Positions 12,601-32,492 of a DNA stretch of 64,000 nucleotides are shown here, in pieces. The notes beneath the pieces are model-generated. The model made no database searches. It saw nothing but the letters and a program-made list of their open reading frames with translations, and was not told the origin of the DNA. The translations under genes and the position numbers were made by a program. Position 1 is the first letter of the stretch; every line of letters starts with the position of its first letter. The stretch is taken from IMG/VR virus record IMGVR_UViG_3300029928_000010; one strand, written 5' to 3'. The DNA is from a virus.

Positions 12601-15600
12601 AAGGAGATAATACAGCAGCTTGCATTGATGGGGCAGATTACAGCCAAGCAAGAGCAAATCATCCTGAATGGAGGAAGAATATCCGCTGTATGGAGCATGA
12701 CGACATCAAAGGTCGGTGGCTTTATCAACGCTATTGGTGGTTGGTGGGGAATCGGAATTACTGCCGTCACCTCTCTCCTGATGGGATACAATCAATGGTC
12801 TGACAGAGTAAAGGAAGACGAGAAGACCATGGTTGATGGGGCAAGGCAGAAATCAAAGAGCTATGGAGACTTTTTATCCGGACTTGGACCTAAGAGCGAC
12901 TCGAATATGTCTTCTCAGGTTGATTCAATGAAGGAAATCCTAAAGAGTTCTGACGATTACACCGATTCCATCAAAGAGCAAGTCGAGAACGCTGATAGCC
13001 TGTCCAAGCAGTATGACATCCTAAAAAAGAAGATAGAGTCAGTTAAGGATACGAACGACAAGATGGCCGGCAAGTATGGAGCCGTCGTCAATAATGCGAC
13101 TTACGCAACCGGACTTACAAATGACAACCTGTTTAACGCTCTTGGTATAGATACGCCGGAGTGGTTGCAGTGGCTGAATGGACTCACAAACGACGATATT
13201 ACGAAGAATGTAGAGGAAGCTCAAAATTCATTGTCTAAGTTCCAAGTAATGTTTGATGAGCTTGACTCTAAGACCAAGGTGGAAATGGAGGACTTCATCA
13301 AGTCTCTAATGAAGAACAACCAAGAACTTGCGAATCAGATAAAGGGGCTTCCTCTCGCCGAACAGATCAGAATGCTTGCTGCAATAGGTGGTGACGATTG
13401 GGATAAGTTTGTCGATAAGTTTGTCAATGGAAGTAAGGAAACTGAAAATTGGTTGAAGGAACTTGCTTCAAGAGCTAAAGAATCCAGCGACGATGTATCT
13501 GAAATAATGTACGATGATGTTCCGAAGGGGCTCGAATCTATAAGAAAGCAGCTCGGTATGTCGCAAGACCAGTTCAAGGAATGGGCTAAGAAAAATCCGG
13601 AGATTTTTGCGAACATGATGGACAAGATGGCACAGAAGGCGAATATTACAAGCAAGACCATTTTGTATTATTTCCATTCAGCTATAAGCAAACTCATGGA
13701 TATGGACTTCTGGCCTGGAGATACCGATGGAAAGAAGAAGGGTAAGCCAACGTATAATTCAGGTGTGAACACATTCTTCGCATATACTATCAGAAAGAGG
13801 CTCTTCAAGAACGGAACCGTAACAGGAACGAAAAAGAAAGGAAAGTTCTGGGCCTCGGAGATTGACAATGCGTTAAGGTCAGTCCAAGACCAATCTTCTT
13901 ATACGACTGGTGAAAATATACAGAAGGAGTTGAAGAGCGCAAGGAACGAGCTTGATGTTTTGAACACTGGGAAGGTTAACAAGAAATCATCGGAATACAG
14001 GAACGCCAAGCATAAATACGACATGTGGAAGGCGATTGCCGATGCTGGACACATCTCCAACGATGTTGGTAAGAACAAGGTGACGGGCAACTTTGGAAAA
14101 GACCACAACAAAGGTGGTCGCAAGGAGGATACCGAGCTAAAGAACCTCCAGGAGCGTCTGAATAGCTTGAAGTCGGCAAGGCAGATGTATCAAAAGTATC
14201 AGACCATCATGTCTGATGACGAGGCAAAGGAGAAGACTCTAAAGTTGTTCCCGGAAGTAACTGGATTGAATCTCAACGACTACCAAAAGGCGGTTAGAGA
14301 ATTACTCAAAGGCTTCAAGATAAACACATCGGAGCGAAAGAAATTCCAGACTTCCATATATCGTGAGGTCGCAGAGTGGATTTTCTCCGAGAAAGACAAG
14401 AAAGCGTTCGACGAGAAGGCTGCAACCTTCAACGAAGAGATGAACAAACTTTCCGAAAGGTGGGATTTGTACAAAACTCTGCTCGAAAAAACAGGGAATA
14501 AGAACTTCGCCGAGTCTTCATGGATTGATGCTTTCCAGATGGACGAGAAGACGAAATCCTTGATGGACGAGTGGTATGCCCATTATGGAGAGGTTTTCAA
14601 TCTGGAGGATTCTCTTAAACTTACTGATGGACAGGCAAAGGAAAGGTTCAAAAAAGCGGACCAGTACAACGAGTGGAAGAAAATTGTTGATCTCCTTCGC
14701 GGGAATTACGTCAAGTCATTGCAGGATGGAGCGGAAGCAATATCGCAAACAATGGCTATTGCGCAGAAGTTGGATGTTATCGCTAACAAGTACAACGAGA
14801 AACGCAAGAATGCTGGTGATGATCAAGGACTGATTGATAGGTACAACTATCTTGAAAAACAGGAGAAGTCTGGAGTTCTATTCGACCAGTTGAAGAGCGA
14901 GATAAACTGGGATGGCGTTTTCGGGAATCTTGATAACTACACAAAAAAGGAACTTCGCAAGATTCGCAAGCAGATTCGCGACCTTGTTGCTGGAGGTATT
15001 CTTGATGGTATGTCAACTACTGACTTGAAGTCTTTCTATGACGGAATGGAAAAATTGAACCAGGCAATCGACGGACAGGGATTCAGCGGATTGTCAGATT
15101 TGATTAGAGAAATGGTCGATGCTTCGCAGAAGTATGACGATTCCGTAAAGGAATACAACGAGGCTGTAGAAAAATACGGCAAGAATAGCTGGCAGGCAGA
15201 GGCAGCTCGCAAGAAAATGCAAGAAGCAGAGGACAGGAAACGCAGGGCGAATGGTAGTGTAAGGACAAAGAGGGAAACCCGATTGAGCAATATCTTGACA
15301 GTAGTAGATATGTTCAAGACGCTTGGCATGAGCAACGGAAGCGGTTCTACATTTCTGTCAAACGCTGGCGGATGGACGGAATCTCTCATGAAGATGTTTG
15401 GAGGAGACAAGGCGCAAAAGAACTCTCAAAAAATAGGAAGCATTGTCGGCATGTTCGCTGGGCTGACCGAGGCTATAAACGAGAAAGGCTTTGGTGGATT
15501 CCTGTCCGATGCGTTTGAGGATATAGGTGGTGCAACGAACTCCATCTTTAAGGATTTGTTCGGTTTAAACCTTGGGATAAAGGGGGCTGACTACTCCGAC

Positions 15601-16716
15601 TATAATAAGGCAAAAGCTGAGTACGAAAATCTCGTAAACATTTGGGACACCCTTATATCCAAGAAGAAGACATATATGTCAGAACATTGGGGAACGGAAG
15701 CCCAGAATGCTTCAAAAGAAGCTATGGCTTTGTTAAAGTCAGAGATTGAACAAGCCAAGGTAATCGCTAAGAACAGGCTTGGATCTGGGGCTTCCATTGG
15801 TTCTCACTCTATCAGCTACCGAATGTGGAAGGGCTCTTACGACTACAATGGTACAAATTGGAGAGACGTAGCGGGAGAGATCTCGTCAAAGTATGGCGTG
15901 CAGTTCAACGGAATGGAAGACATGCTCAACATGGCGCCAAAGGTGCTTGAAGGAATAAAGACTGATTTTTCAGGTCTTTGGGCCAATATGGATAGTGACT
16001 TCCGTGATTACCTCGACAAGTTGATTGAATACGGCGATCAAGTTGACGAGATGGAGGAGAGTCTAACTGAGAAGCTGACAGGAAACAAGTTCTCGGACTT
16101 GGTGTCTTCCTGGGGCGATGCAATGTCTTCGATGGCAAACTCTTCGGACAACCTGGTGGACCACTTCGAGGATAACTTGAAGAAAATTATCCTAAACTCC
16201 ATGATAGAGGATATGTACAAAGACGATATAAATGCAATCCTCGCAAAGGCAAAAAAATATGGAGATAAAGATTTGTCCGATAACATCATGCAAGATGGGA
16301 AAATCGTATCGACATTCACAGGAGAGGAATATTCGGATGTTATGTCGGATGTAGATGATGTCGCAAAACGAATCGAGGCAACTCGTGACTTCTTGAAGAA
16401 AACCTACGAATGGTCGGATAGTAGCAGCTCTTCCTCGACGAACTCTGTTAAGGGTATTACGGAAGAAACCGCTGATATTATCGTGTCGTATATTTCGGCT
16501 ATGCGTCTTGATTTATCAGTCAATAGATCGGAGCTCAAAACTCTGTCAGACTTCATACAAGCCAAGATTCCAGAGCTGAGTGTCATTGCTCAGTCTCAAC
16601 TTACCCAGTTGAGTCAGATTTCGCAGAACACCTTGCGCAATGCGGATTCAGCAGAGCGCATTGAGTCAATGCTTAATTCTGTCATAAATGGCGTAAAAAG
16701 AGTAAGAGTTGTATAA
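9700..16716 (+). CDS. Tail tape measure protein
   Basis: 2338 aa. Contains the conserved tape-measure core (GELNRDVKQLAAFGVEANDLYDTTKRLADIASGLGVSFERLGLAYGQVKA...), long coiled-coil regions and a Gly run. Confidence 0.85.
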   Translation: MADGNLGSLWFQLGLKDNTSKELQKIIDKLKTGDDAANALLRALQGFGTKKSGFKEQAEKAKEFSDVLLELNRRISKLRKNDKGDEAKDLQNAVKNALSYLDMLQKINIERSKISELRSLNPNVDTSKLREAEVMLENVNSQLLRLQGKPQGGGGGGVDQANVLQDYSKVLQMTLRDVKQITDQFKKENPLSAFSGGAAKVEADIARVTEKLAKMRDLMSEGVTKGYNTSMLGGSLTELDKVLSRLQAASGNKSILTDAAQMKNLLSDVAVEMTKATSATQAYGREKGKVIAIEREFAAAAKLSAKDNEAELKAQSDYIKRYMALVEKKREMAEKGGITLFQKNDQGLKNITAEIDVLLDKLSKVREDITLYQHAIGNGTKESIAFGQQGLKEANAEAEKLMSTITALQNVYDTLRVSQANVKDLIGQTPQMQRQNDIQKRMSEYYSNLEKTSAKEAAQATRDAAKAKREDAQADKQRQKEIEISTQRINSLSDALDRLKSARFTAKMLGIDTNEIDQQIYKVIDSINLLDTVRKRLESGDKTVIGTIGQIGNGREVQLANRVASEYERSNKEVQKSIELEQKRQAEIAKSAAKARNDLAAAFAGANAEAKKMQSIVSDIKSLFLQGGIVFGAQQFFNSIVQTGGEIVQQHVALRSILGDVQKADELFAQTQQLALQSPFKFGELNRDVKQLAAFGVEANDLYDTTKRLADIASGLGVSFERLGLAYGQVKARSWLDGKELRQFAYAGLPLLQKITDLYNQEGKNGRNNYTQADVKKMISGRQVSFEDVQKVLWNMTNEGGQFYNMQLVLSETLLGRWNKLIDAWDIMLGKFAEGKNVVGGTFSFIINRVTDLVLALDKLSPALLSFGAVFAAKKLVGFGSSKLGLGSLSKNYNDQVNAQLKAYAIEQQQIVVEGKITQQKALQNVYQRAASLTEKESLVSGYNRAALEGRMSILQMQRAVKEGLVSKEIIQQLALMGQITAKQEQIILNGGRISAVWSMTTSKVGGFINAIGGWWGIGITAVTSLLMGYNQWSDRVKEDEKTMVDGARQKSKSYGDFLSGLGPKSDSNMSSQVDSMKEILKSSDDYTDSIKEQVENADSLSKQYDILKKKIESVKDTNDKMAGKYGAVVNNATYATGLTNDNLFNALGIDTPEWLQWLNGLTNDDITKNVEEAQNSLSKFQVMFDELDSKTKVEMEDFIKSLMKNNQELANQIKGLPLAEQIRMLAAIGGDDWDKFVDKFVNGSKETENWLKELASRAKESSDDVSEIMYDDVPKGLESIRKQLGMSQDQFKEWAKKNPEIFANMMDKMAQKANITSKTILYYFHSAISKLMDMDFWPGDTDGKKKGKPTYNSGVNTFFAYTIRKRLFKNGTVTGTKKKGKFWASEIDNALRSVQDQSSYTTGENIQKELKSARNELDVLNTGKVNKKSSEYRNAKHKYDMWKAIADAGHISNDVGKNKVTGNFGKDHNKGGRKEDTELKNLQERLNSLKSARQMYQKYQTIMSDDEAKEKTLKLFPEVTGLNLNDYQKAVRELLKGFKINTSERKKFQTSIYREVAEWIFSEKDKKAFDEKAATFNEEMNKLSERWDLYKTLLEKTGNKNFAESSWIDAFQMDEKTKSLMDEWYAHYGEVFNLEDSLKLTDGQAKERFKKADQYNEWKKIVDLLRGNYVKSLQDGAEAISQTMAIAQKLDVIANKYNEKRKNAGDDQGLIDRYNYLEKQEKSGVLFDQLKSEINWDGVFGNLDNYTKKELRKIRKQIRDLVAGGILDGMSTTDLKSFYDGMEKLNQAIDGQGFSGLSDLIREMVDASQKYDDSVKEYNEAVEKYGKNSWQAEAARKKMQEAEDRKRRANGSVRTKRETRLSNILTVVDMFKTLGMSNGSGSTFLSNAGGWTESLMKMFGGDKAQKNSQKIGSIVGMFAGLTEAINEKGFGGFLSDAFEDIGGATNSIFKDLFGLNLGIKGADYSDYNKAKAEYENLVNIWDTLISKKKTYMSEHWGTEAQNASKEAMALLKSEIEQAKVIAKNRLGSGASIGSHSISYRMWKGSYDYNGTNWRDVAGEISSKYGVQFNGMEDMLNMAPKVLEGIKTDFSGLWANMDSDFRDYLDKLIEYGDQVDEMEESLTEKLTGNKFSDLVSSWGDAMSSMANSSDNLVDHFEDNLKKIILNSMIEDMYKDDINAILAKAKKYGDKDLSDNIMQDGKIVSTFTGEEYSDVMSDVDDVAKRIEATRDFLKKTYEWSDSSSSSSTNSVKGITEETADIIVSYISAMRLDLSVNRSELKTLSDFIQAKIPELSVIAQSQLTQLSQISQNTLRNADSAERIESMLNSVINGVKRVRVV

Positions 16717-17294: not shown

Positions 17295-20200
17295 ATGAGC
17301 ACTTGGAACATATATCATAAGGATGGCTCTAAGCTGACCGACGTCAACGGCGAGCAGATAATCGTTCACGGATTGGAGTATTCCGATTCGTGGATGGGCG
17401 AATGCTATGTGACCATCAACTTCAAGAACAACGCCCCGATAGACTTCCGGATTGGCGACTATCTTGTCTATCGTGGCGAGCGTTTCGAGCTAAACTACGA
17501 ACCGGGAAAAGACAAGCAGGCAAGGAAGGACACCTACGGAGAAGGATTCGTCTATGACAGCGTGAAGTTCAACGCCATGCAGGATGAACTTTCGAGGGCA
17601 GAGTTCCTGGACGTTGTTCTTCACGACAACGAGCTTCATTATACAGCTCTTCCGAAATTCAGTTTCTACGTTGAGACCTTGGACGACTTGCTCGACAGAA
17701 TCCAGGCGAGCCTCAACGAACAGATTGGCGAGGGCAAGTGGAAGATATTCTCTCGCTGCATGGAACGCTCAGTGCAGCGCGGCGTTACTGAGGCAGAATG
17801 GAACGCCGCTTATGGAGAGAATACCACTAACAATGTAATCGACTCTAAGTCCATCACCATCGACTCGAAGAAATGCTGGGAGGCGTTGGCTTTGGTGAAC
17901 AGCAAGTGGGACGTGAACTTCATCGTTCGAGGCAGAAACATCTACGTTGGTACTGCGGGAGTTGTCGCAAGCCACATATTTAAGTATGGCCTTGGAGAAG
18001 GTCTCTACGAGATTGAGCAGAATGCCGACTCGGACCAGGAAATCATCACAAGACTCAGGGCTTATGGCTCCGAGAAGAACCTACCTTCGCATTACTATGC
18101 GGACTTGGGTATTAAGTACTTTGCTAACATAACCAAAGTCAATGCGGCAGAGAACGAGAAGTATCACAATGTTGACTTGCTGTTGGATCTTGACTATATC
18201 GAAACCTACTTCAAGACACCAAGGAAATTTGTTGTCAATGGAGAAACGAACGAACAGGCCAATGGCTTTGTCCTGCAAGTTACGTTTGATTTCAAGACTA
18301 TCATAACAGGATATGTATCGAAAGACTATAACACCGGGAAATGCAGGTTCTATTCCGAGCTGAAAGGTAGTCAGACTGACGATGGAGACGAGGAGTCGCA
18401 GGAAAAACTCGATTCTTTTATCTCACAAGCGAAGGAAGGAAACACCTTGTTATATATATCTTCTGGTATTAACAGCAAAACAATCCCGTCGGCGAACAAG
18501 GAATATGCAAAGAACCTTCCGAACAACATGTCCATCAACAGGCTTATGTTGCCAGGATTCCCTCATCTGTCATTACAGGAGTACTATGACTCATTGTCCG
18601 AGACCGAGAAGAAGTACGTGAATCCGTCCGGTCGTGAGCATAAGTTCTCAACGGATCCTCACAGACCGTATATCGACTCCATCAACATCGACAAGATTGG
18701 TCTCCGTTCAGAGTCTCAGTTCTTCGACCAAGATGACAAGACGAACGGAATCGTAGATATATACCCTACCATCGAGGAGATGGTAATCAACGATGTTCGT
18801 ATCGACGAAATCAACGAGGGTGTTGCGCCTGATGATGATGGAAGATTCGAGGATGGGCAGACTCCGAAGGTTGACATTTATCTCAGTCCATCCATCGACT
18901 TCGATATAAACGACTTAAAGGATTCGGACTTTGCCATTTCTATGAAGGATGGCTATTGCGGCGGACGAACATTCAATGTAGCGTCATATACAAAGGTTGA
19001 TGGAAGATGGAGGCTTACCATCGAACGCGTTAAGGACGATGCACTGGACTTGTATTTCCCATATAAGGGCTATCCTATCAATAAAGGAGACCATTTTGTG
19101 TTGACAGGCATCACCCTACCCGACTCCTATGTGAAAGCAGCGTCGTTGAAGCTCTTGAAGTATGCCATTGCCTTGCTTGACAAGAACGACTATACCCGCT
19201 ACGTCTATCAGCCAAAGGTCGATGAGATTTTCATGGCAAGGCAGAATGACCAAGCGATTGCCGACAAGACAGGAACCATTAAGAGCCTGTACCAAACATT
19301 GAAGGCGGGCGACCTGATGGACTTCGAGGACACGGATCTCCACATTGACGGGCAGATAACCATCGACCAGCTCACGATCAAGGAGGAAGATGGCAAGATA
19401 CCAACCTACGAGATTACGCTCCGAGAGGATAAGGAAGTTGGAACTATACAGAAGATCCAACAACAAATCTCGTCTCTTGAGAGCGGGAATGGAGGAACTG
19501 GAGGCGGGTTGACTACGGCACAGGTCAAGAGTCAAGTTGCGGCGGAAGGAAGTAAGCACTTCCTCTCCAAGCAGTCCGACGATACAGCACAGGGGCTGAT
19601 AACCTTCCTAAAGGGCTTGAAGCTTGGCAGTGACTATTCCGTAGGCTCTGACGGAAAGGCAATCTTGTCGGAGGTGTTGCTGAACGTCCTTAGAAGCATT
19701 GACTTCAACGATGCCGAGCAGACAGGATTCGCATTCGAGCGTCGGGCGGACGGAAAGTACAAGCTCTCAATCACAGACCTCATTGTTTGGGGCAAAGCGA
19801 TATTCAACACCTTGCAGATAAGGGAGCTGTCATACGTCGGCGGAAACATCGTCCTCTCCCCTTCCGCAAGCAAGATTACATCTGTCAAGGAAGTATACGA
19901 CGAGGAGACGAACGAGCTGACAGGATGGAAATGCTACCTCTTGGCTGACGATGGTACTACGGCGACATTCAACACTTGGAAAAAGCTAGACCAATGCCGA
20001 TGCAAGACGTTCAACATTCAGTCTGGTGTATACGAAAACGTCTCAAACAAGGACTACTGGAGGCTTGTCACAGATGTCTCTACCGAGAACGAGGCTATCA
20101 CGGACGAGCAAGGGAACGAGCTGTACGACGGTAAGAAGTTCGCTTGGATAGAGATAGCCAAGGACAACTGCATGGAAGGCTCTGACATTCCGTCCGCAGG

Positions 20201-20921
20201 GGACACCATCGTACTGATGGGCAACAGAAAGGACACGGACAGGCAGAACCTACTGATGATGGAGACCGAGGGGGACAACGCTCCTAGCATTACGATGTAC
20301 CGAGGCATCAACAGCTATTCCCTCACTGGAAAGTCAATCTTCGACGTCGGCTACAACGGAGTGAACATCGTCTCGAAGTACTTCAACCTAACCGCTTCCT
20401 CGGGAGAGAAGGTATATACTCCTGTGTATCGTGGCATCTGGAACGAGAGCACGGCATACGATTACTACGACCAAGTGAGCTACGAGGGAACGATGTGGCT
20501 CTGTATCGTGAGCAATGGGGAGACAACGACGGAAGAGCCTAGCGAGGATAGCGCATACTGGCAGCCAATGACAGAGATACAACGCAGGAAGCTGGTGATA
20601 GAGATGAATGGGCAGGACACGCTCGATTGGGGTGAGAACATAGATGTGACTTGTAGGGTCATGCGTGCCGACACCGAGATTGACACATCGACAGGTTGGG
20701 ATTGGAGCGTGGAGCGGAACAGCGGCAACAAGATAGAGGATGCCGCTTGGGGCGCTTTGCCTAAGGCACAGGATTTCAAAGGTTCTATCAACCTATCCTT
20801 CTCGGAGAGCGAGAACGACCTTGGAGAGGAAAATAAGGATGTGTACGGAGTGGTGTTCACGTTTAAGGCTTGGAAAATCGGAAACAAAGCTAAGACTCTC
20901 TTTGCCACGCTGAGTGTATAA
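17295..20921 (+). CDS. Putative tail tip / tail-associated protein
   Basis: 1208-aa ORF in the expected tail-tip position. Confidence 0.45.
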   Translation: MSTWNIYHKDGSKLTDVNGEQIIVHGLEYSDSWMGECYVTINFKNNAPIDFRIGDYLVYRGERFELNYEPGKDKQARKDTYGEGFVYDSVKFNAMQDELSRAEFLDVVLHDNELHYTALPKFSFYVETLDDLLDRIQASLNEQIGEGKWKIFSRCMERSVQRGVTEAEWNAAYGENTTNNVIDSKSITIDSKKCWEALALVNSKWDVNFIVRGRNIYVGTAGVVASHIFKYGLGEGLYEIEQNADSDQEIITRLRAYGSEKNLPSHYYADLGIKYFANITKVNAAENEKYHNVDLLLDLDYIETYFKTPRKFVVNGETNEQANGFVLQVTFDFKTIITGYVSKDYNTGKCRFYSELKGSQTDDGDEESQEKLDSFISQAKEGNTLLYISSGINSKTIPSANKEYAKNLPNNMSINRLMLPGFPHLSLQEYYDSLSETEKKYVNPSGREHKFSTDPHRPYIDSINIDKIGLRSESQFFDQDDKTNGIVDIYPTIEEMVINDVRIDEINEGVAPDDDGRFEDGQTPKVDIYLSPSIDFDINDLKDSDFAISMKDGYCGGRTFNVASYTKVDGRWRLTIERVKDDALDLYFPYKGYPINKGDHFVLTGITLPDSYVKAASLKLLKYAIALLDKNDYTRYVYQPKVDEIFMARQNDQAIADKTGTIKSLYQTLKAGDLMDFEDTDLHIDGQITIDQLTIKEEDGKIPTYEITLREDKEVGTIQKIQQQISSLESGNGGTGGGLTTAQVKSQVAAEGSKHFLSKQSDDTAQGLITFLKGLKLGSDYSVGSDGKAILSEVLLNVLRSIDFNDAEQTGFAFERRADGKYKLSITDLIVWGKAIFNTLQIRELSYVGGNIVLSPSASKITSVKEVYDEETNELTGWKCYLLADDGTTATFNTWKKLDQCRCKTFNIQSGVYENVSNKDYWRLVTDVSTENEAITDEQGNELYDGKKFAWIEIAKDNCMEGSDIPSAGDTIVLMGNRKDTDRQNLLMMETEGDNAPSITMYRGINSYSLTGKSIFDVGYNGVNIVSKYFNLTASSGEKVYTPVYRGIWNESTAYDYYDQVSYEGTMWLCIVSNGETTTEEPSEDSAYWQPMTEIQRRKLVIEMNGQDTLDWGENIDVTCRVMRADTEIDTSTGWDWSVERNSGNKIEDAAWGALPKAQDFKGSINLSFSESENDLGEENKDVYGVVFTFKAWKIGNKAKTLFATLSV

Positions 20922-20975
20922 AAAAATGAGTTTATTAAACATTAAATATTAACGTTAATAGTAATTTCATAGATT

Positions 20976-22301
20976 ATGGCAACAAACAAAAATCTAGGTA
21001 CGGCTGATGCTGTATCGACCGTTCAGCAGACGGACTGCATTCTTGCCGAGGTTGGCGGAAGCGTGAGACGATTGGAAATAAAGAACCTCTCGAAGAGCCT
21101 CAACCTCTCATTGTCCACCCCAGAGGTGTATGCCTATGGTATCGAGTTCGATGTTACGGTATCTTCTACCGCAGCTACTCGCATCGGAAACATGAGCTTA
21201 CATCGCACTCTTCCAGTGCAGACATTGATGAAGGGCTGTCTCCTTGATGATGATGGAAACGTGGTGGACTACCTCGACCCTACGGACTGGACTTCGCAGA
21301 CAAGAGACGGAAGCCGTGGGCAGGTGATGGTGGAGCTTCCAGAGTACTACGAGAAGTTCGAGACCGAAGGCAACAAGCGCAGGGTGTGGATGAGCCTAGA
21401 GCCTCTGACTGGCTTCCACAAAGTACCAAAACGCTACGTGAGCGCATATCAAGCATTCCTTAAGGATGGTAAGTTATGTTCCATCGCAAACACCTTGGCT
21501 TCGTCGAACATTAATCGTACGCAGTTCCGCAATTATGCAAGGGCGAGAAAGAGCGGTAGCACGGAGTGGAACTGCATGATGTACGACGTTCAGCGTGAGC
21601 TCTATTGGCTCTTCGCCGTGGAGTACGCTCAGTTGTCTTGCCAGACCGCATACAACGCTGCGCTTACTTCCGAGGGCTACCATCAAGGTGGACTCGGCGC
21701 AGGCGTGTCATCCGTTAATTGGGATACATGGAGTAAATATAACGGCAATGTGGCTTTCGTAACCAACGGTGTAACAGACACTCTTGGCAACCGAACAGGC
21801 ATTGTTACTTTCGACACTGGTACTAAGAACGCTGTCACCCTTGGCAAGGTTAGTGTATCTCGTTATCGTGGAATTGAGAATCCTTTCGCTCATTTGTGGC
21901 AATGGACGGACGGCATCAACATCTCTGTTGAGTCGGGTGATAGCGGAGCAAGCAAGGTATATATCTGTCGTGACCCTAAGAAGTTCAACGACAGCAAGGC
22001 TGATGCAGAAGGGTATACTTATGTCGGCAACGAGGCAAGAACGGAAGGTTTCGTCAAGGAAATAACCTTCGGTGAGTATGGAGACATTACAGCAAAGGCT
22101 GTAGGTGCAAGTGATAATAGCTATCATGCAGATTATCACTACACAAACATACCTACCTCTGGTTCTACCTTGCGTGGCGTGTTGTTCGGGGGTGCTGCGG
22201 CTAGCGGCTCGCGATGCGGTTTCGTGTCTTCGTACTCGGCTAGCGCTCCCTCGGATGCGAATGCGTCCTTCGCCTCTCGCCTTTGCTTCCAATCAGCGTA
22301 A
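20976..22301 (+). CDS. DGR variable (target) protein, likely a tail receptor-binding protein
   Basis: 441 aa. The C-terminal 40 residues are encoded by the VR (…LRGVLFGGAAASGSRCGFVSSYSASAPSDANASFASRLCF), cognate to the TR 668 bp downstream. Confidence 0.8.
   Translation: MATNKNLGTADAVSTVQQTDCILAEVGGSVRRLEIKNLSKSLNLSLSTPEVYAYGIEFDVTVSSTAATRIGNMSLHRTLPVQTLMKGCLLDDDGNVVDYLDPTDWTSQTRDGSRGQVMVELPEYYEKFETEGNKRRVWMSLEPLTGFHKVPKRYVSAYQAFLKDGKLCSIANTLASSNINRTQFRNYARARKSGSTEWNCMMYDVQRELYWLFAVEYAQLSCQTAYNAALTSEGYHQGGLGAGVSSVNWDTWSKYNGNVAFVTNGVTDTLGNRTGIVTFDTGTKNAVTLGKVSVSRYRGIENPFAHLWQWTDGINISVESGDSGASKVYICRDPKKFNDSKADAEGYTYVGNEARTEGFVKEITFGEYGDITAKAVGASDNSYHADYHYTNIPTSGSTLRGVLFGGAAASGSRCGFVSSYSASAPSDANASFASRLCFQSA
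22173..22290 (+). repeat. DGR variable repeat (VR)
   Basis: 118 bp aligned to the TR at 22841-22958. The 16 mismatches all correspond to adenines in the TR. Confidence 0.85.
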
Positions 22302-22328
22302 GTCGAAGCGACACGCAGCGTAACACGT

Positions 22329-22362
22329 CCCTATACCGCCCGATATTTATGGCGGTATAGGG
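22329..22362 (+). promoter_or_regulatory. Hairpin downstream of the VR (candidate DGR target-recognition stem-loop)
   Basis: Perfect 12-bp inverted repeat ccctataccgcc / ggcggtataggg with a 10-nt loop, 39 bp after the VR end. Confidence 0.5.
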
Positions 22363-22430
22363 GGTAAGCTAAGAGCAAGCAATAATGCGATAAGTAAAGT
22401 AATTTTGATAACAATTAAAACAAATAAATA

Positions 22431-22814
22431 ATGGACAATAGCAATATGAACAATAATCAGGGCAATGGCGAAAAGTCTGACGATGGAAGCCTTGCATTTT
22501 TGAACATTCCGAGAGACGAGAATAGTCGTTCTTTCAACTGCAAGGACGTGAGCCAGAGTAAATTAGTGAATACCTCATTTTGGCTGATTGATTTTTTGGA
22601 GGACGTTCCAACAAGATTTTCCAAGCAGAAAGGCAAGAAAGGTCAGACGCTTGTTATGGTGAAGAAGGAATTGAGCGACCCAGACAGCGAGGCGATGAAA
22701 TTCTTCACAGGCTCTACTGATATTCTCTATATCTTGCAAGAAATCAAGAAAAGGAATGCCTTTCCTCGAAAGGCTACGTTGAGATGCCAAGGAAATAGAT
22801 ATTTCTTGGAATGA
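22431..22814 (+). CDS. Candidate DGR accessory protein (Avd position)
   Basis: 127-aa ORF between the VR and TR, co-directional, and of Avd size. The sequence itself is not recognisably Avd-like. Confidence 0.3.
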   Translation: MDNSNMNNNQGNGEKSDDGSLAFLNIPRDENSRSFNCKDVSQSKLVNTSFWLIDFLEDVPTRFSKQKGKKGQTLVMVKKELSDPDSEAMKFFTGSTDILYILQEIKKRNAFPRKATLRCQGNRYFLE

Positions 22815-22840
22815 CAAAGAATTTAAGGTTGGCAACTTTC

Positions 22841-22958
22841 CGTGGCGTGTTGTTCGGGGGTACTGCGGATAACGGCTCGAAATGCGGTTTCGTGTATTCG
22901 AACTCGAATAACGCTCCCTCGGATGCGAATGCGAACATCGCCTCTCACCTATACTTCC
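22841..22958 (+). repeat. DGR template repeat (TR)
   Basis: 118 bp, the A-containing invariant partner of the VR. AAC/AAT codons fall at the mutable positions. The 64-aa ORF reported here is the TR itself, not a gene. Confidence 0.85.
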
Positions 22959-23114
22959 TAGGGAAAATATTAAAATGTGGAAGTTGCGACCGCACCTCTT
23001 GGTGAAAAATATAGGAACTCAGAAATGTGTCGGTAGGTGTCGGATTATACGCCGACAGTCGAAGGCTCGGAGTAAGGAAGCAAAGAATATTCATTTAATC
23101 AATAACATACAGGC

Positions 23115-24134
23115 ATGAGACGATACGGCTATCTTTACGACAAGATAATCTCCATGGATAATCTGAGGATTGCGGACATGAATGCTCGCAAGGGAAAGGC
23201 TAAATCTTATGGAGTAAAGCAATTCGACAAGGATAGGGAAGGTAAATTATTCGCCCTGCACCATATGCTAAAGGATAAGGCTTACAAGACATCGAAGTAC
23301 GATATATTCATTATCCATGAACCAAAGGAACGGGTGATTTACCGCCTACCCTATTATCCAGACCGCATCGTTCACCATGCCATTATGAATGTGCTTGAAC
23401 CGATATGGCGCAGCGTGTTTACGTGCAATACCTATAGCTGCATCAAGGGCAGGGGAATACATGGGTGTGCAAAGCGAGTGAAGGAGATAATAAGAAAATA
23501 TGACGGTAAGGAACATCTCTATTGCTTAAAGATAGACATTGTTAAGTATTACCCAAATATCAACCACGATGTGATGAAGGCGATAATAAGGAGGAAGATA
23601 AAGGATGAGGATACATTAGGCTTGTTAGACGAGATAATAGACTCGGCTGATGGGCTTCCGATAGGCAACTATATCAGTCAGTACCTAGCCAACCTCTATC
23701 TCGCATACTTCATGCACTGGGTGAACGAAGGGCTGATGATTGACGCAACGGAATACGCCGATGATATTGTATTTTTCTCTGATAGCAAGGATAGGCTGCG
23801 TGAGGTCTTTGTCAAGATAAAAGAAAAATTGGAGGGAGAGCTTAGACTGACCATCAAGCGCAACTGGCAGATATTCCCGATAGCTACTAATAGGTACACC
23901 AACGATGGAAGGGCATTGGATTATGTTGGTTATCAATTCTTCCGTCAGCAGACGTTGGTACGAAAGAGCATAAAGAAGAGACTCTGCAAGGAAGCCAAGA
24001 AAGCCATCGGCAAGGACGTTAAGGAAAAAGAGCTGAAAATGCGGCTTAGTTCTTGGCTTGGATGGACAGAGCATTGTAACGGACGGCACTTACTCCACAA
24101 GATAGGAATATACGACAACATAAAGACATTATAG
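23115..24134 (+). CDS. DGR reverse transcriptase
   Basis: 339 aa. YADD catalytic motif (ATEYADDIVFF) and the DGR-RT hallmark LPIGNYISQYLANLYL (IGxxxSQ). Lies directly downstream of the TR. Confidence 0.85.
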   Translation: MRRYGYLYDKIISMDNLRIADMNARKGKAKSYGVKQFDKDREGKLFALHHMLKDKAYKTSKYDIFIIHEPKERVIYRLPYYPDRIVHHAIMNVLEPIWRSVFTCNTYSCIKGRGIHGCAKRVKEIIRKYDGKEHLYCLKIDIVKYYPNINHDVMKAIIRRKIKDEDTLGLLDEIIDSADGLPIGNYISQYLANLYLAYFMHWVNEGLMIDATEYADDIVFFSDSKDRLREVFVKIKEKLEGELRLTIKRNWQIFPIATNRYTNDGRALDYVGYQFFRQQTLVRKSIKKRLCKEAKKAIGKDVKEKELKMRLSSWLGWTEHCNGRHLLHKIGIYDNIKTL

Positions 24135-24156
24135 TGATTTTTTAAATATAGATATT

Positions 24157-24552
24157 ATGAAGGTAATTTATGACAATCAGCCTACAGTATTGGAGGCAGT
24201 GGGAAACGGTAGCCATCGCTACCACTATGACATCAGAGAGGTTGAGGTTGCATCATCTACAGATGGTGATGGCTACAAGAATGCGACGAATAGCCAACAG
24301 TACGAATGCCAGGAGGTAGTCGTTTGGGAACCTCTGACATCCAATCGCATCACCGAGGCTGTTATCGCCGAGAAGTGGGATGATAACCGTGAGCAGAAGT
24401 TCATCAACGAGTATAATGCTGTACAGCTCGGCATTATCACCGACAAGGACGAGGTAAAGGCTCGCACACAGGCGTACAAGGATTTCTTAACGGAGAGATT
24501 GCGCTTGAAAACTATGGTTGACAACGACTGCAAGCTACTTGGCATCGAGTAA
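24157..24552 (+). CDS. Hypothetical protein
   Basis: 131-aa ORF. Confidence 0.4.
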   Translation: MKVIYDNQPTVLEAVGNGSHRYHYDIREVEVASSTDGDGYKNATNSQQYECQEVVVWEPLTSNRITEAVIAEKWDDNREQKFINEYNAVQLGIITDKDEVKARTQAYKDFLTERLRLKTMVDNDCKLLGIE

Positions 24553-24607
24553 CAGAACATCTCTAGTGAACGTTTTTTAAAAAATCTTTAAAAAATTCTA
24601 GTAGTTT

Positions 24608-25813
24608 ATGAGAACGGAAAAGAAATTCATGCACCGCAGATACGAGCCGCTTGTTACGGCTTGTACCTTGTCGTGTATCACGCCAGAGTCTACGCCGACG
24701 CAAATTTTCAGCGGTGGAGACTATCAGCCAAACCGAGAGGGAGCGAGCGGTGTGCCTTGCGGCATCTGCCCTGCGGTATCGGCTAACGCAAAGGACGGCA
24801 GCTGGCAGGGAAAGTCAAGAAGTAACTCGCATTTGGCTCAGATGCAATGGTATGTCAATGGGCAGAAGATAGAAACCTTGGCTGACTGGAAAGATAAGTA
24901 CTCCATCATACAGGCAGGCGACAACAAAGGTACTTTGCTCATCAAGCGCAACATAGGATTGAACGAGAGGGTGAGCCTGCGATTCGAAGGAAAGATTCTC
25001 GACTTTCGTAACAACGACCTTGTGCCTGCCAACAGCGATGAGCTTACCCTTTATACGGTGGAGGCGGCTGAGGATGCTTGGAGTGTTGAGACGGAATATC
25101 CACTGAACTTGCTTTACTCCACAATCGACGACAATATGCTATTGCACGATTATCAGGTGTCTCATGGAATTGCAACAACTCTCACTTCTCAGCAAATTAA
25201 CAACGGAGAGCAATATATGCGAACCGCAAAGATTAGCGTAAAGAAGGGCAAGACTTTGCAGAAGAGTGGCTACACATTGGAACTTTACCGCACTGACGGA
25301 GAGGAAGAGAAGAAGATGATGGTAGGAAACGAGCTTGTGGCTTTCTCCCTCACCAGCATGACCCTCGACCTGAGAGTCATAGAGGATGGTGCTACTTACA
25401 TGCTTAAAGTGTTGGTGAACGGAAAGGTGCAATGCCTAAAGACAATCTGCACCGTAGCAAGACTTCATAAGGCTATATCCGTAAAGCCAGCGGTGGAGAG
25501 CGACATCTACCCATCGACGGAGGTCTTGTTTCAACGTGCGATAGTGAAGTGCAAAGACCACGATGTGCCTTGTGCCGAGAACACCATCAAGATGCAGTTA
25601 CTTGGAAGCACAGCTTATGAGCAGGACGTTAATCTCGGCGAGGGACGTGAGGTAGCCTTTAGACTGTCCGACCTTATTATGGGCGACACACAGAAAGATA
25701 ATTACGTTGAAACTTGCTTCGAGTACGACTACAAGGAGCAGTATAAGGTTGCGACAGATGCAAGCGGTAACACTTACACTGATGAGAACGGCAATCCGTT
25801 CATCTTTAACTAA
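24608..25813 (+). CDS. Hypothetical tail fiber-associated protein (start uncertain)
   Basis: 401-aa ORF. The N-terminal ~80 residues are odd; an internal start at MQWYVNGQK is possible. Confidence 0.4.
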   Translation: MRTEKKFMHRRYEPLVTACTLSCITPESTPTQIFSGGDYQPNREGASGVPCGICPAVSANAKDGSWQGKSRSNSHLAQMQWYVNGQKIETLADWKDKYSIIQAGDNKGTLLIKRNIGLNERVSLRFEGKILDFRNNDLVPANSDELTLYTVEAAEDAWSVETEYPLNLLYSTIDDNMLLHDYQVSHGIATTLTSQQINNGEQYMRTAKISVKKGKTLQKSGYTLELYRTDGEEEKKMMVGNELVAFSLTSMTLDLRVIEDGATYMLKVLVNGKVQCLKTICTVARLHKAISVKPAVESDIYPSTEVLFQRAIVKCKDHDVPCAENTIKMQLLGSTAYEQDVNLGEGREVAFRLSDLIMGDTQKDNYVETCFEYDYKEQYKVATDASGNTYTDENGNPFIFN

Positions 25814-25826
25814 GGAGGCAAACGAT

Positions 25827-26063
25827 ATGAGATACGTATTGGCTATGGCAGAGAAGGCGGAGCTTGTTGGCTTTGACCGAGAGACGCACAACCTCGTCGG
25901 TGTCAACGGAAGCGACAATATGATGGTTATCACGGCAAAGGGAATGATGTCGTGTGCTAAGTTGACAGGCGACGAGAAACAACGTCTTAAGCAGCTCGGA
26001 GGCATTGCTTTTGAGAATCAGAGAGAGTTGGAAACTTATTTAAGAAACTTTAATATTAAATAG
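25827..26063 (+). CDS. Hypothetical protein
   Basis: AGGAGG precedes the ATG at 25827 (MRYVLAMAEK...). This is the 3' part of the longer overlapping ORF 25707-26063. Confidence 0.4.
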   Translation: MRYVLAMAEKAELVGFDRETHNLVGVNGSDNMMVITAKGMMSCAKLTGDEKQRLKQLGGIAFENQRELETYLRNFNIK

Positions 26064-26065
26064 AT

Positions 26066-27088
26066 ATGACAGATTTACTATCAGGCAGTATTACCCTTAA
26101 GCGACTAAAGAAGGGTGTGAACGTAGTGTTGAGCATTGAGACAGAGAATGCTGCTCTTTATCAAGGATGGAATCCCACGGACGGAACGCCTAAACCGAAC
26201 TTTAAGGATGAGGCAAACCAACCAATCCTTGTTCCTAAGGCTGTTGGTGGCAACGGACAGACAGCAAGCATAACTAACGGAACTTGGTACTATAATGGAA
26301 CGATACTTGTGGTTACAGGAACTGCCGACAAGAATGGATTTTGCAAGTGTTCGGATGCTCGCTTCGCAATTAACCCTAGCAATTACAAACTTCGTATCGT
26401 AGACAACATAGCTTCGAAAGATAACACAAGTAACGACTTGTTTAGATTCGTTGCCTCAGGCGAGGTGCAAAAAACATCTTACGAAACGGAGGCTACAGCG
26501 GAGCTGCATCTACAAGAGATAGGCACTAGTGCGGCTGCTCTCTACGTTGGCGGTAAGTGTACGTTGTCTAAGGCAGAGCCAACTACAGAATTAACCGCTT
26601 ACCTCTTTGTCAGCGGAGAGTTGAAGGATTCTGGATATAGCTACAAGTGGTATACTGAGGGCGGAAAGGTATTGCAGGACAGTACAAGCCGCAAGTATAC
26701 AGCCAAGAGGGACGATGTTACAGCAATCGGTGGTATATATTGCTCCGCCTACCTTACAAGCGATAACCAAAAGACTATCATCACTACAGACTTCCATAAG
26801 ATGACCGACCTCGGTGACGAGTACGAGCTTACCGCAACTGTCGACAAGGAATGGGATGGAACGAATGCGCAGACAGTAACTGCACACCTATTTAAGTTTG
26901 AGAACGGAAAGAAAGGAACTGAGGTTACAATAACGCCGTCGAAGGTTACTCATGTGTTCGCAAGCTCAGAGAATAACAAAGACCTTGGGACAAAGATAGG
27001 AAATCCTGTAGAGGTCGGTACTGACATTTGGGGGAAGATAACCAACGATAGCGAGGACGTTGTTGATTTTATCAGCTACGAGGTTTAA
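26066..27088 (+). CDS. Putative tail fiber protein
   Basis: 340 aa. Shares an N-terminal SITLKRLKKG-like motif with the next gene. Confidence 0.4.
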   Translation: MTDLLSGSITLKRLKKGVNVVLSIETENAALYQGWNPTDGTPKPNFKDEANQPILVPKAVGGNGQTASITNGTWYYNGTILVVTGTADKNGFCKCSDARFAINPSNYKLRIVDNIASKDNTSNDLFRFVASGEVQKTSYETEATAELHLQEIGTSAAALYVGGKCTLSKAEPTTELTAYLFVSGELKDSGYSYKWYTEGGKVLQDSTSRKYTAKRDDVTAIGGIYCSAYLTSDNQKTIITTDFHKMTDLGDEYELTATVDKEWDGTNAQTVTAHLFKFENGKKGTEVTITPSKVTHVFASSENNKDLGTKIGNPVEVGTDIWGKITNDSEDVVDFISYEV

Positions 27089-27097
27089 TAATTAAAA

Positions 27098-29473
27098 TTG
27101 GGGGTATATATGTTGTCTTCATCTATCACATTGCATCGCAAGGCGAAAGACGGACAGAAAGGAAACGATGGCATCGGTGTGAAGAACGCCGATGTCATGT
27201 TTGCCGTGTCTATGAACAATAAGAGCGATGCTTCTAAGATTTCCGATTCTGACTGGAAAACGAACTTCAGCGACTTAACGTTGAAGGAAAATGGGTATGT
27301 ATGGGCTTGCACAAAGATAACCTATACTTCGGGTAATGCAATATACACAGGAAAGTACTGCCTCGGTGGATGCTACGACTTCGCAGAGGTGACGGAGGTA
27401 TATGCGCTGAGTGACAACGGAACTGACGCTCCTGCTGATGGTATGTCTAATTGGAATTTGACATACTCTGCGCAGAAGGGCAAGTACCTTTGGACGTGCG
27501 AGAGAGTGAGATACAATCAAAGCAGCTCGAACTATGCGTACCTCAACAAGAAGTGCATTACCTATTTTGCGAAGGATGGTGTCAACGGAACTAGCTTTAC
27601 ACCTAGAGGTACGGCACTTGCACATTATACCAACTATGCGGCATACAAGGCAGATGGCGGCAACGGAAAAGACGAGGATGTATTTCTTATAGACACATCG
27701 AAGGGAGAGGATATTAATATAAGTGAGCCTTATATCATATCATTTGATTCATCGGGTAATGAATGCTACGACAAGGCTGACGTGGGCGATGCCTACCGAA
27801 TAGGAACGAACCTTTGGGTGAACAACGGAAGTAAGTGGGTAGACTTTGGTGACATACAAGGTCCGAAGGGCGAGAACGGAGAGGATGCGCTGAATATCTT
27901 GGTTACTCCTCAGACCGTCAATTTTGAGGTTGACGAGAACGGAAATTTCGTCAAAGAAAATCAAGGTATATACGTCATTGTATTTAGGGGAACGCAAGTG
28001 CTGCACTATCCTTCCGACTACACAATATCTGTAGGCAATGAAACGAACGGCAATTTCGATGTCGGTAGCAACAACAAAAACTTCCTCAACTTAAGCGGGT
28101 CTGCCGATAACACAACCCCTAAACTGGTATTGTACGCTGATGGAATAACAAGAAAGGAATATGAGTTCGGCGATACTTATAATAAGGGTCAAAAGGTTTC
28201 ATATCCTGCAAGTTCCGCCTGCGTATTGTTAGGAATACGCTGCGACGGAAAGGTATTCAACAAGACAATCAACATCAACGTGAGCTTCACGAAGATGTAC
28301 GGAAACACCGCCTGGAACGTCAAAGGTTTCGAAAGCACCTATGGCAAGTTCGTGAGCGATACGAACGGAAAGCTGACGCAACATGAGAGCTCAATCAAGC
28401 AGAATGCAGATAGCATAAACACTCTTGTAACAAAAACAGACGGACTTCAATCAACGACTTCATCTCTCCAAGAAACGAGCGATAGCATCTCTGCAAGAGT
28501 TGATGCGGTTGACGTTCAAGGGAAACAAACGCAAGCCGAACTCGATATGTGCGTGGAGAAGCAGGACGATGGCTCGTATCGCAGCAAAATGAAGTTGTAT
28601 GCAGATGATGTAGAGTTTACCGCAGACCACTATATGAAGATAAAGAGCGGACAGCTCGAAATAGAAGCCGAAAACGCATCTTTATCTAAGGACGGAACAC
28701 TTAAGACCAAGAACTCCGAGTTCGAGAACGTCAAGGTAAGTGGTTCTATGCGTTCAGATTATTCGGTTGTGAAGAGCGGAATGGAAGAATTGAATGTGGA
28801 TAACATCTGCATTCAGAGCGAAGAATGGTTTAGCTTCTTTCAGTTGAAATGGACTTCCGACCAGATAGGACGGACGATGAGGATAGCTAATTACACGGAT
28901 AATGGTGCGATATTTTCAACTCCATCATCCGATAAGTACTTTATAACAAATGGTCAACATGTAAGCGATATTGTTGTAGCTCCTCATCGTTGTCTCGTGC
29001 TTCATGGATTTGGCTTTAATGATAATCTTATCGCATGGTGCGTGGAAAACAGTTACTCTTATCTAAGCTCGCTTCCTCAGTATGGAATGAAGTATCTCGC
29101 AAAAGGTTTTGTAATATATAACAGCAATACAAACATAGAAATACGACAGAAAACGATAGGTGGAAGCATAAGCGTATTAAGGCTAGGCACAGGGTTGTAT
29201 CGTCTTTTGTTGCCTATGTCATGGAGCGGAGCGTATGCTACAAGCGGAGAATTGTTGGTATACCAGGTAGGTGTTATGCTAACAGGCTTCGGTTATTCAA
29301 AGGATGATGGCAAAAAAGCTAGTCCTATCAAGGCTACCGTGAAGGAAATCGGATGGACTAACATTGTTGGCTCCCAGATTTATATTGATGTATGGACTAG
29401 TGATGACGCATCGGTAAACGATGGAGATTTTCAGTTTTTGATATATAATCTAAACACCAACTTTGATGATTAA
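27098..29473 (+). CDS. Putative tail fiber / receptor-binding protein
   Basis: 791-aa ORF. N-terminal motif SSITLHRKAKDG is similar to the upstream fiber gene. Confidence 0.45.
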   Translation: MGVYMLSSSITLHRKAKDGQKGNDGIGVKNADVMFAVSMNNKSDASKISDSDWKTNFSDLTLKENGYVWACTKITYTSGNAIYTGKYCLGGCYDFAEVTEVYALSDNGTDAPADGMSNWNLTYSAQKGKYLWTCERVRYNQSSSNYAYLNKKCITYFAKDGVNGTSFTPRGTALAHYTNYAAYKADGGNGKDEDVFLIDTSKGEDINISEPYIISFDSSGNECYDKADVGDAYRIGTNLWVNNGSKWVDFGDIQGPKGENGEDALNILVTPQTVNFEVDENGNFVKENQGIYVIVFRGTQVLHYPSDYTISVGNETNGNFDVGSNNKNFLNLSGSADNTTPKLVLYADGITRKEYEFGDTYNKGQKVSYPASSACVLLGIRCDGKVFNKTININVSFTKMYGNTAWNVKGFESTYGKFVSDTNGKLTQHESSIKQNADSINTLVTKTDGLQSTTSSLQETSDSISARVDAVDVQGKQTQAELDMCVEKQDDGSYRSKMKLYADDVEFTADHYMKIKSGQLEIEAENASLSKDGTLKTKNSEFENVKVSGSMRSDYSVVKSGMEELNVDNICIQSEEWFSFFQLKWTSDQIGRTMRIANYTDNGAIFSTPSSDKYFITNGQHVSDIVVAPHRCLVLHGFGFNDNLIAWCVENSYSYLSSLPQYGMKYLAKGFVIYNSNTNIEIRQKTIGGSISVLRLGTGLYRLLLPMSWSGAYATSGELLVYQVGVMLTGFGYSKDDGKKASPIKATVKEIGWTNIVGSQIYIDVWTSDDASVNDGDFQFLIYNLNTNFDD

Positions 29474-29499
29474 CGCTTGCTGATTATCGACTTGGCAGT

Positions 29500-29640
29500 G
29501 ATGCCAGGTCGTCAATCTTGTGTTTCATTTCCATCAATGAAACAGTTTCTTTCATAGGAATGAAACTAAGTTTTTACGCATTGACGCATGATTTACGGAA
29601 AATGCTCTTATCTTTGCGGAATTATTTTAAACGTTAAAAG
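29500..29640 (+). promoter_or_regulatory. Promoter/operator-like region
   Basis: TATCTTTG -7 motif at about 29609-29616, 27 nt before the ATG at 29643. It is preceded by palindromes tgtttcat...atgaaaca and tttcat...atgaaa. Confidence 0.3.
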
Positions 29641-29642
29641 TT

Positions 29643-30149: not shown

Positions 30150-30188
30150 TGTATGATTTTGTGAGAATTTCGTAAAAATCAATATAAT

Positions 30189-30530: not shown

Positions 30531-30732
30531 TTGTTCCTCTTTTTTTTGTTTCAAGTTTTACAAACATTGGAAAGAATGACATTACCTCGTATCACCTTAA
30601 ATCTTTGATAATCAACCATTAAAAGAAATCGTGAGCGAGTTATGGCCTATCTCGCACATTCATCGTACCTTTGCATCCGTAGTACTACAATAGTGTTAGA
30701 TAACTTTAAGGATAACTTAAAAAGATTGTTTT

Positions 30733-31425: not shown

Positions 31426-31547
31426 CAGAAAGGTAACAAGGAAGTCCGTAAGAAAGGCTAAGAAAAGATGAGTTGGTGAGGGGTGTTTGCCTCTCTAAGG
31501 TGGATGCCCTATCACCTCTCTATAATATATCACCAACTTAAAGATAT

Positions 31548-32470: not shown

Positions 32471-32492
32471 TATTACTTTAACGATTAATAAG

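Follow-up and report, generated by a model that had tools for sequence, protein, structure and literature searches.

The 64,000-nt stretch of DNA analyzed here (hereafter, the window), which comes from the IMG/VR record IMGVR_UViG_3300029928_000010 and to which all coordinates refer unless another locus is named, contains at positions 20976-24134 a real, complete and naturally active phage diversity-generating retroelement (DGR). The cassette consists, in this order, of a tail protein gene with a variable repeat (VR) at its 3' end (the target), a small open reading frame (ORF) that we denote ACC, the template repeat (TR), a structured spacer RNA and the reverse transcriptase (RT) gene; all the parts of a DGR acting on the C-terminus of a phage tail protein, which an earlier note made from the sequence alone had recognized, are thus present. 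No known natural protein diversifiers are more powerful than DGRs, which reach their highest density in the human gut; almost all that is understood of their mechanism comes from BPP-1, in which the Avd protein is essential. The element described here belongs to a temperate tailed phage of gut Bacteroidales, and the entire body of evidence makes it probable that, in this active DGR, a non-Avd domain, ACC, works together with the RT.

The VR (22173-22290, plus strand) and the TR (22841-22958, plus strand, with 23 adenines) form an ungapped 118-bp alignment that contains 16 mismatches. In all 16, the TR has an adenine, and the VR has G (7 sites), C (5) or T (4), so that the computational alignment bears out both the repeat pair and the adenine restriction of its mismatches that the earlier note had described. 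The VR differs from the TR at 16 of the 23 TR adenines and at none of the 95 other bases (hypergeometric P = 1e-14 for the placement of all mismatches on TR adenines). Extension of the alignment beyond either end of the repeats brings in mismatches at bases other than adenine, indicating that these boundaries are right. Nearly all the changes (15 of 16) fall at codon position 1 or 2 of the target ORF (20976-22301), the stop codon of which is located 11 nt past the end of the VR. The adenine-containing codons of the TR are AAC (4), AAT (2), AAA, ACT, GAT (2), TAT and ATC, with CAC/CTA/TAC at the 3' end; the six AAC and AAT codons agree with the earlier reading that TR adenines reside mostly in such codons. 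Adenine-only differences between VR and TR are found also in more than 100 related loci, and an adenine-masked scan of both strands of the window detected no second VR. The G+C content is 64% in the VR, 54% in the TR and 44% in the phage, a compositional footprint of adenine replacement. In addition, a 64-aa 'shadow' ORF (22811-23005) spans the TR in the reading frame of the VR, and its ATG overlaps the stop codon of ACC (ATGA); this ORF is probably a by-product of the TR copying coding sequence, and the overlap would permit translational coupling.

The activity of the element is evident from comparison of natural populations. An 84.5 kb metagenomic relative (L011; ERZ26859172) is 99.74% identical to positions 19562-32814 of the window (13.3 kb), and of the 34 differences between the two, 17 are concentrated within the 118-bp VR, all at sites with an adenine in one TR or in both. 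More generally, near-identical relatives with ~0.1% differences outside the VR carry completely different VRs. The protein cluster around the target includes 87 distinct sequences at >=97% identity; among 15 readable distinct proteins, the hypervariable codons are 407, 409, 410, 413, 418, 420, 422, 423, 427, 429, 431 and 432, with 4 to 9 residue types each. This set coincides exactly with the 12 TR-adenine codons that precede the S-R-L-C motif. Starting from the TR of the window itself, these 12 codons allow, by calculation, ~2e11 proteins. The adenines in GGATGCGAAT (codons 427 and 429), noted earlier as unchanged, are indeed unchanged in the window, but both vary in the population. Because near-identical relatives differ in the VR at TR-adenine sites, a restriction that shows in the L011 comparison as well as among the 15 near-identical proteins and that had been proposed as a check, the element is active in nature.

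The TRs themselves are not identical in these two phages: at positions 22863 and 22868, both hypervariable, the window TR has C and G, respectively, where the L011 TR has A and A. These are two of the 17 substitutions outside the VR, and both fall within the 118-bp TR (binomial P ~0.01). The residues found in the population at codons 407 and 409 require a TR of the L011 type; thus, the window TR has lost two adenines, with stray homing of mutagenized cDNA into the TR, VR-to-TR conversion and chance as possible causes. If this loss, together with the deletion chimeras and RT-less remnants that exist in the family (see below), is taken as a sign of decay, the window copy might be currently inactive and the VR/TR differences historical. 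However, all ORFs of the window cassette are intact and the RT retains the catalytic motifs, the spacer RNA scores 73 bits with our own covariance model, the VR matches the window's TR at 95 of 95 non-adenine positions, and the VRs of relatives that are ~0.1% different elsewhere are completely different. We therefore consider such decay extremely unlikely.

Judging by its sequence, the 339-aa ORF at the end of the cassette (23115-24134, plus strand) is a DGR-type RT. It matches RVT_1 (E = 2.4e-14) and phrog_1423 (E = 7.5e-105), and its closest relative of solved structure is 8ub7 (E = 3.4e-36, compared to 4.5e-12 for group II intron RTs), which we take to be the BPP-1 bRT, the entry being labelled only 'Reverse transcriptase'. 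The YADD and the DGR-specific IGNYISQ motifs, which had been noticed previously, are both there and align with YMDD and IGSLTSQ of 8ub7; the profile search that had been suggested as a test of the RT thus yields matches to RT models together with the shared DGR-type motifs IGxxxSQ and YxDD. Among deposited phages, the nearest RTs are those of crAss-like DGRs (47-51% identity).

The small ORF located at the avd position, between the target and the TR (ACC; 22431-22814, plus strand), encodes a 127-aa protein that resembles Avd in size and basic pI (8.9 for the protein, 9.2 for the core). An identification with Avd is nevertheless rejected: at E <=0.01, ACC matches no Pfam or NCBIfam model, including PF05635 and TIGR02436 (Avd / 23S-IVS), and the AlphaFold model of ACC (predicted local distance difference test score, pLDDT, 80.7, and above 90 in the core) comprises 6 strands and 2-3 short helices, a beta-rich domain rather than a four-helix bundle. 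Neither is there an Avd among the ten other small ORFs of the window. The accessory gene is thus atypical, as had been suspected. A profile search for ACC among solved structures produced no match, and support for an oligonucleotide/oligosaccharide-binding (OB) fold of ACC was weak. ACC belongs to phrog_19665 (E = 5e-33), the only label of which is 'unknown function'. Its homologs form 638 clusters at 90% identity, none of them annotated, with no more than 119 representatives at 50% identity in a set of 1.84 billion proteins. The best structural matches to the ACC model in BFVD are 324-602-aa proteins annotated as RTs (E = 2e-7, template modeling score 0.62, 24% identity), which are known by annotation alone; fusion of ACC to RTs is the most likely explanation of these matches. 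A candidate Bacteroides-type promoter (TAnnTTTG, 22400-22407) upstream of ACC was dismissed, being not conserved in relatives.

The genomic context ties ACC to the RT. We distinguish type I loci, with the order target-ACC-TR-RT, from type II loci, in which the TR directly follows the target and a distant paralog of ACC, ACC' (~105 aa), is encoded after the RT and ORF131. ORF131 is the acidic 131-aa protein (pI 4.8; phrog_11557; 24157-24552, plus strand, in the window) that is encoded after the RT in all relatives. Among the GTDB loci found via ACC (42, or 36 by another tally), every one that is not cut by a contig end contains the target, ACC, the TR and the RT, and shows adenine-only VR/TR differences. 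These loci are mostly from Bacteroidales, with Phocaeicola coprocola, Mediterranea, Muribaculaceae, Barnesiella and B. faecichinchillae among the isolates. In all type I loci, the TR begins 20-60 nt after the ACC stop codon (27 nt in the window), and ACC is probably co-transcribed with the TR. Conversely, 80 IMG/VR loci were found via the target alone, and in 67 of these there is enough downstream sequence for a judgment: 64 encompass both ACC and the RT, one (L074) has the RT but no ACC, two are devoid of both, and in no case is ACC present in the absence of the RT (Fisher P = 0.0014, shared ancestry not being corrected for). The target homologs that have no RT, L132 and L076, also have no ACC. 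In L132 (3815-5693), an IMG/VR phage, the target, ending in ...GSRLCFLPK, is followed after 61 bp by an ORF131 homolog and a fiber gene, that is, an 'empty site' that lacks exactly ACC, the TR and the RT, so that these three make up the mobile or losable unit, which is present or absent as a whole.

The linkage extends to rearranged and fused forms. In ~9 type II cassettes, the position of ACC' relative to the target is shifted but the linkage with the RT holds. A tblastn search with type I ACC found no match among deposited phages; the ACC' query, the only one to reach Hankyphage, matches Hankyphage p00, BKO1-TP3, LoVEphage and other temperate phages of Bacteroides. In the three named phages, the match lies inside the RT gene. 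In particular, residues 1-322 of the 434-aa Hankyphage RT align with the window RT, and residues 330-433 are a full-length match to the ACC' profile (E = 3e-19); the 496-aa RT of BKO1-TP3 contains the ACC domain at residues 387-496 (E = 2e-25); and a 194-aa ORF of LoVEphage is made up of an RT thumb and, after it, ACC. The ACC' profile also recognizes the window ACC (E = 1.9e-12), and K90, T93 and P112, in the motifs K-F-F-T-x-S and F-P, are invariant in the free, relocated and fused forms. The presence of a separate gene in one genome that is a domain of the RT in another is a classical sign that the two proteins act together.

Some observations weigh against such a partnership. The targets of all type I loci are homologous, so that the co-occurrence of ACC and the RT partly reflects common descent, and there are related RTs, in crAss-like DGRs, phage Versailles and L074, with no detectable ACC, although cr52_1 (a crAss-like phage) and L074 have the same kind of spacer RNA. 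Either some relatives can do without ACC, then, or an undetected component substitutes for it there. The first of these observations, along with the location of ACC directly downstream of the tail-protein gene, also fits the alternative that ACC is a tail-fiber chaperone, or a structural or assembly partner of the target, with its adjacency to the DGR incidental; fiber chaperones often follow a receptor-binding gene, and ACC has no proven nucleic-acid-binding motif. However, ACC is missing next to the RT-less target homologs in L132 and L076, whereas ORF131 stays beside the target; ACC is missing as well from Versailles, which has a homologous target, and from crAss DGRs; ACC' of type II is separated from the target by the TR, the RT and ORF131; and in Hankyphage and BKO1-TP3 the domain is fused to the RT although the targets are unrelated giant proteins. 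On balance, we find a function of ACC in tail assembly very unlikely. ORF131, which was itself considered as a DGR accessory protein and rejected for this role on the strength of its persistence beside the target in RT-less L132, probably belongs to the tail module and not to the DGR; it has no match in Pfam, and DUF4376 is not detectable in it.

ACC might also travel with the TR and RT without a part in retrohoming, as an expression regulator, a counter-defense or moron gene, or a selfish passenger. The strong conservation of the core (39 invariant residues in 41 sequences), the start of the TR shortly downstream of the ACC stop codon, seen in all type I loci and matching the arrangement of avd-TR-RT operons, the lack of any match between ACC and models of defense proteins and the repeated fusion to the RT polypeptide, which argues for a shared complex, are at odds with such a role. 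Conversely, the DGRs of crAss phages, Versailles and L074 work, or at least persist, without ACC, the position of ACC varies among loci, and its function is listed as unknown in PHROGs. We consider this possibility unlikely, albeit less so than a chaperone.

Thus, we favor ACC as a partner of the RT. Under this reading, a transcript would carry ACC along with the TR and the RT-17 spacer RNA, and the cDNA would replace VR codons 407-432 of the tail protein, with up to the ~2e11 variants calculated above at 12 codons, while the GC-rich S-R-L-C block at the 3' end would remain constant; ACC, a ~110-residue beta-rich domain, would work with the RT as a helper. We infer that ACC is required for retrohoming and that, in the manner of Avd, it may bind the template RNA or the cDNA, or stabilize the RT. 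Given that ACC is basic, similar in size to Avd and encoded at the avd position, our best guess is an RT-bound, nucleic-acid-handling cofactor that takes Avd's part. The most specific version of this proposal, that ACC is the missing RT cofactor, unrelated to Avd, of the 'Avd-less' DGRs of gut Bacteroidales phages, encoded separately or as the C-terminal domain of the RT and required for template-RNA handling or for cDNA priming and homing, we put forward tentatively, as a possibility with somewhat less than even prospects.

Several disrupted derivatives of the cassette were detected as well. In a Bacteroidales metagenome-assembled genome (L053:4995-6425), two ORFs, of 89 and 185 aa, take the place of the TR and the RT, and ACC is truncated, with the target and the ORF131 homolog kept; the N-terminus of the 185-aa protein is HNH/NUMOD-like (GYEGLYEVSNNG), and, from its sequence, this locus looks like a DGR destroyed by insertion of a homing endonuclease. 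Four other proteins from public databases (P0163, P0175, P0202 and P0182) are in-frame chimeras without a TR, in which the N-terminal part of ACC is joined to various points of the RT. Two of the junctions show microhomology (PD and D), and these chimeras could reflect either genuine deletions within the cassette or errors of assembly.

The spacer that separates the TR from the RT contains a structured RNA (22988-23087, plus strand) that belongs to the Rfam family RF03020, RT-17, with a score of 56 bits against a gathering score of 40.4 and coverage of model positions 1-95 of 95. A single-sequence fold of the whole TR-spacer RNA was no better than those of shuffled sequences; when the TR-to-RT spacers from 24 loci were aligned, conserved blocks became apparent, along with three helices, P1 (22993-22996 with 23001-23004), P2 (23026-23030 with 23065-23069) and P3 (23036-23037 with 23059-23060). 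Across the 24 loci, 97.5% of the cells in these helices are paired and 9 of the 10 pairs show compensatory changes, values that none of 500 shuffles reached, and slid registers were paired at 53% at most. We built our own covariance model from this alignment and used it to search the loci, including many that had not contributed to the model: in every RT-containing relative, there is a single match per locus, directly upstream of the RT. An RT-17-like RNA is present also in crAss cr52_1 (41 bits; L001:3921-4004) and in L074 (5499-5601), which has no ACC, and was not detected with the covariance model in Hankyphage and BKO1-TP3 (L136 and L138) or in RT-less loci. Because cr52_1 and L074 have the RNA without ACC and Hankyphage and BKO1-TP3 show the reverse, the type of RNA follows the RT lineage rather than ACC. 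The motifs RT-1 to RT-19 were found near RT genes, with RT-10 placed in the TR-to-RT spacer of BPP-1 and a DGR role only speculated for other RT motifs (Weinberg 2017); neither Rfam nor that study gives a function for RT-17 beyond its proximity to RT genes. In the window, RT-17 occupies the place equivalent to that of RT-10, in a demonstrably active DGR.

Alignment of the VRs and TRs of 42 related loci in register shows that not all TR adenines are equivalent. In ~24 TR-adenine columns, the VR displays all four bases and ~55% of the adenines are changed, indicative of true diversification, whereas in a second class of columns the VR always has the same single base wherever the TR has an adenine. 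Three columns of this fixed class, -100, -82 and -71 from the 3' anchor of the VR, have A in the TRs of many relatives and G in the window TR; the VR has G in 14/14, 16/16 and 23/23 cases, respectively, and these columns were assigned to the first position of conserved Gly codons, which read CGG in the VR and CAG in some of the TRs. TRs thus tolerate scaffold-breaking adenines, and the majority of homing events at those loci are expected to yield non-functional products. The remaining fixed columns make up the 3' block, where the VR always reads CGCCTTTGC (R-L-C) and the TRs read CACCTATAC, CGCCAATGA and similar sequences. The last three mismatches in the window (22279, 22283 and 22285) fall in this fixed class and are invariant in the 42 loci, and therefore do not represent free diversification; in agreement with this, codons 435-437 are invariant in the population. 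Accordingly, the VR is divided into a hypervariable core (~22194-22269; codons 407-432) and a GC-rich 3' block (22270-22290) that encodes S-R-L-C-F and is fixed across the family, the VR/TR homology ending 5 nt past the invariant CGCCTTTGC sites. Either cDNA transfer stops upstream of these sites, with a boundary of the IMH/IMH* type (initiation of mutagenic homing, IMH) after the shared GC-rich ATCGGCTCTC, or selection keeps R-L-C. An S-R-L-C 3' end is the pattern described for CLec3 / lineage 3 (Wu 2018; Morozova 2020); thus, the boundaries of the element, which the earlier note considered atypical, are typical of this lineage.

A GC-rich hairpin with a 12-bp stem and a 10-nt loop (22329-22362, plus strand; DNA fold z-score -5) begins 38 nt after the VR, and comparable hairpins of different sequence are found in ~19 of 28 related loci. 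The hairpin is a candidate target-recognition hairpin or insulator. Two other interpretations were discarded: a canonical terminator, for lack of a T tract on the plus strand, and a universal DGR element, given that only about two thirds of the loci have one.

The 441-aa target (20976-22301, plus strand) is a member of phrog_5302 ('tail protein'; E = 5e-113) and shares 34% identity with the protein targeted by the DGR of Bacteroides phage Versailles; its homologs form more than 2900 clusters, some with thousands of distinct members. The gene follows those for a 2338-aa tape-measure protein and a 1208-aa tail protein and precedes fiber-like ORFs, in accord with the placement between a tail-tip gene and fiber genes deduced previously. 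The target may have a receptor-binding role and, as the CLec3-like sequence pattern in the VR suggests, possibly a C-type-lectin fold. The AlphaFold model is of too low a quality to bear on the fold (pLDDT of 53, falling below 30 in the VR), and sequence and profile searches of the target against solved structures (PDB) and Pfam gave no match. Apart from the CLec3-like pattern, the fold is supported only by a depositor's note on the crAss target, a putative homolog of the window target, and the homology to the Versailles target shows only that such targets are related.

Elsewhere, the window encodes a terminase, a major capsid protein, RecT, an SbcC-like protein, an anti-repressor and an integrase, a gene complement that identifies it as part of a temperate tailed phage. 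The tape-measure ORF (region 9700-16716) is very long, and the 1208-aa tail protein contains a weak CBM_5_12-like segment (residues 1049-1090) under the Pfam cut-off.

Compared to other DGRs, the cassette combines features of several known systems, although a megablast search detected no DNA-level match to it among deposited phages. It has in common with BPP-1 (mtd-VR / avd / TR / Sp RNA / brt) the gene order, the adenine-specific VR/TR differences, the phage tail target and a conserved RNA situated between TR and RT, which is RT-10 there and RT-17 here; it differs by the presence of the beta-rich ACC in place of Avd and by the absence of an extended IMH/IMH* pair, the only counterpart being the short fixed S-R-L-C block. 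Hankyphage (Bacteroides phage p00), BKO1-TP3 and LoVEphage are, like the phage studied here, temperate phages of Bacteroides that carry a DGR acting on a tail protein and an ACC-type domain, so that the earlier judgment of this DGR as one of a known kind holds. In phages of the Hankyphage type, too, a small acidic protein is encoded after the RT; in contrast to the window, the ACC domain constitutes the C-terminal ~105 residues of the RT, which is only ~27% identical to the window RT, and in Hankyphage itself, the target exceeds 2200 aa, no RT-17-like RNA was detected, and the post-RT gene product (161 aa, pI 5.0) contains DUF4376 and shows no detectable homology to ORF131. The crAss-like DGRs (LMMB and cr52_1) have the nearest RTs; they and the lineage 3 / CLec3 DGRs of Wu 2018 have, similarly to the window, a CLec3-like VR and no Avd, but they lack an ACC gene or domain. 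The window cassette, with its conserved ORF between the VR and the TR, is therefore not 'accessory-less'. The coding sequence of the cr52_1 target (L001:2495-3736) contains two in-frame stops under genetic code 11, in line with reports of stop-codon recoding in certain crAss-like phages.

In the available classification, the DGR accessory genes are Avd, HRDC, MSL and CH1, and lineage 3 (CLec3, target-TR-RT), which has no avd, must use an Avd-independent mechanism (Wu 2018), a view shared by the paper on the crAss LMMB DGR. CH1 is a protein of 160-169 aa with a pI of 4.7 that is found in avd-less DGRs (Wu 2018); judged by this description alone, the Hankyphage post-RT protein fits CH1, whereas ORF131 fits only in position and charge. 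In the Hankyphage papers, a small ORF is called or colored 'Avd' from its pI and size only, and nothing is said about the C-terminal domain of the RT. Since ACC has no Pfam family, neighborhood surveys based on Pfam could not have seen it. We found no literature on an OB-like or any other new DGR accessory protein; setting aside the minor candidates PAG1-4 and CH1 of Wu 2018, the ACC domain family appears to be undescribed.

The locus analyzed here provides testable parts for the large Avd-less lineage of gut phage DGRs, namely the ACC domain, either free or fused to the RT, the latter form being found also in the globally abundant Hankyphage, along with a defined spacer RNA, RT-17, that previously had no assigned role, and a map of diversified versus fixed adenines. 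If ACC is not a cofactor, the locus is a clean, well-bounded example of an ordinary phage DGR. If, on the other hand, ACC is the cofactor of these RTs, then cofactor recruitment would have occurred in DGRs on at least two occasions, giving both split and fused versions; ACC could serve as a marker in DGR-finding pipelines, and minimal systems for DGR engineering in Bacteroides might be assembled from the RT, ACC and the RT-17 RNA.

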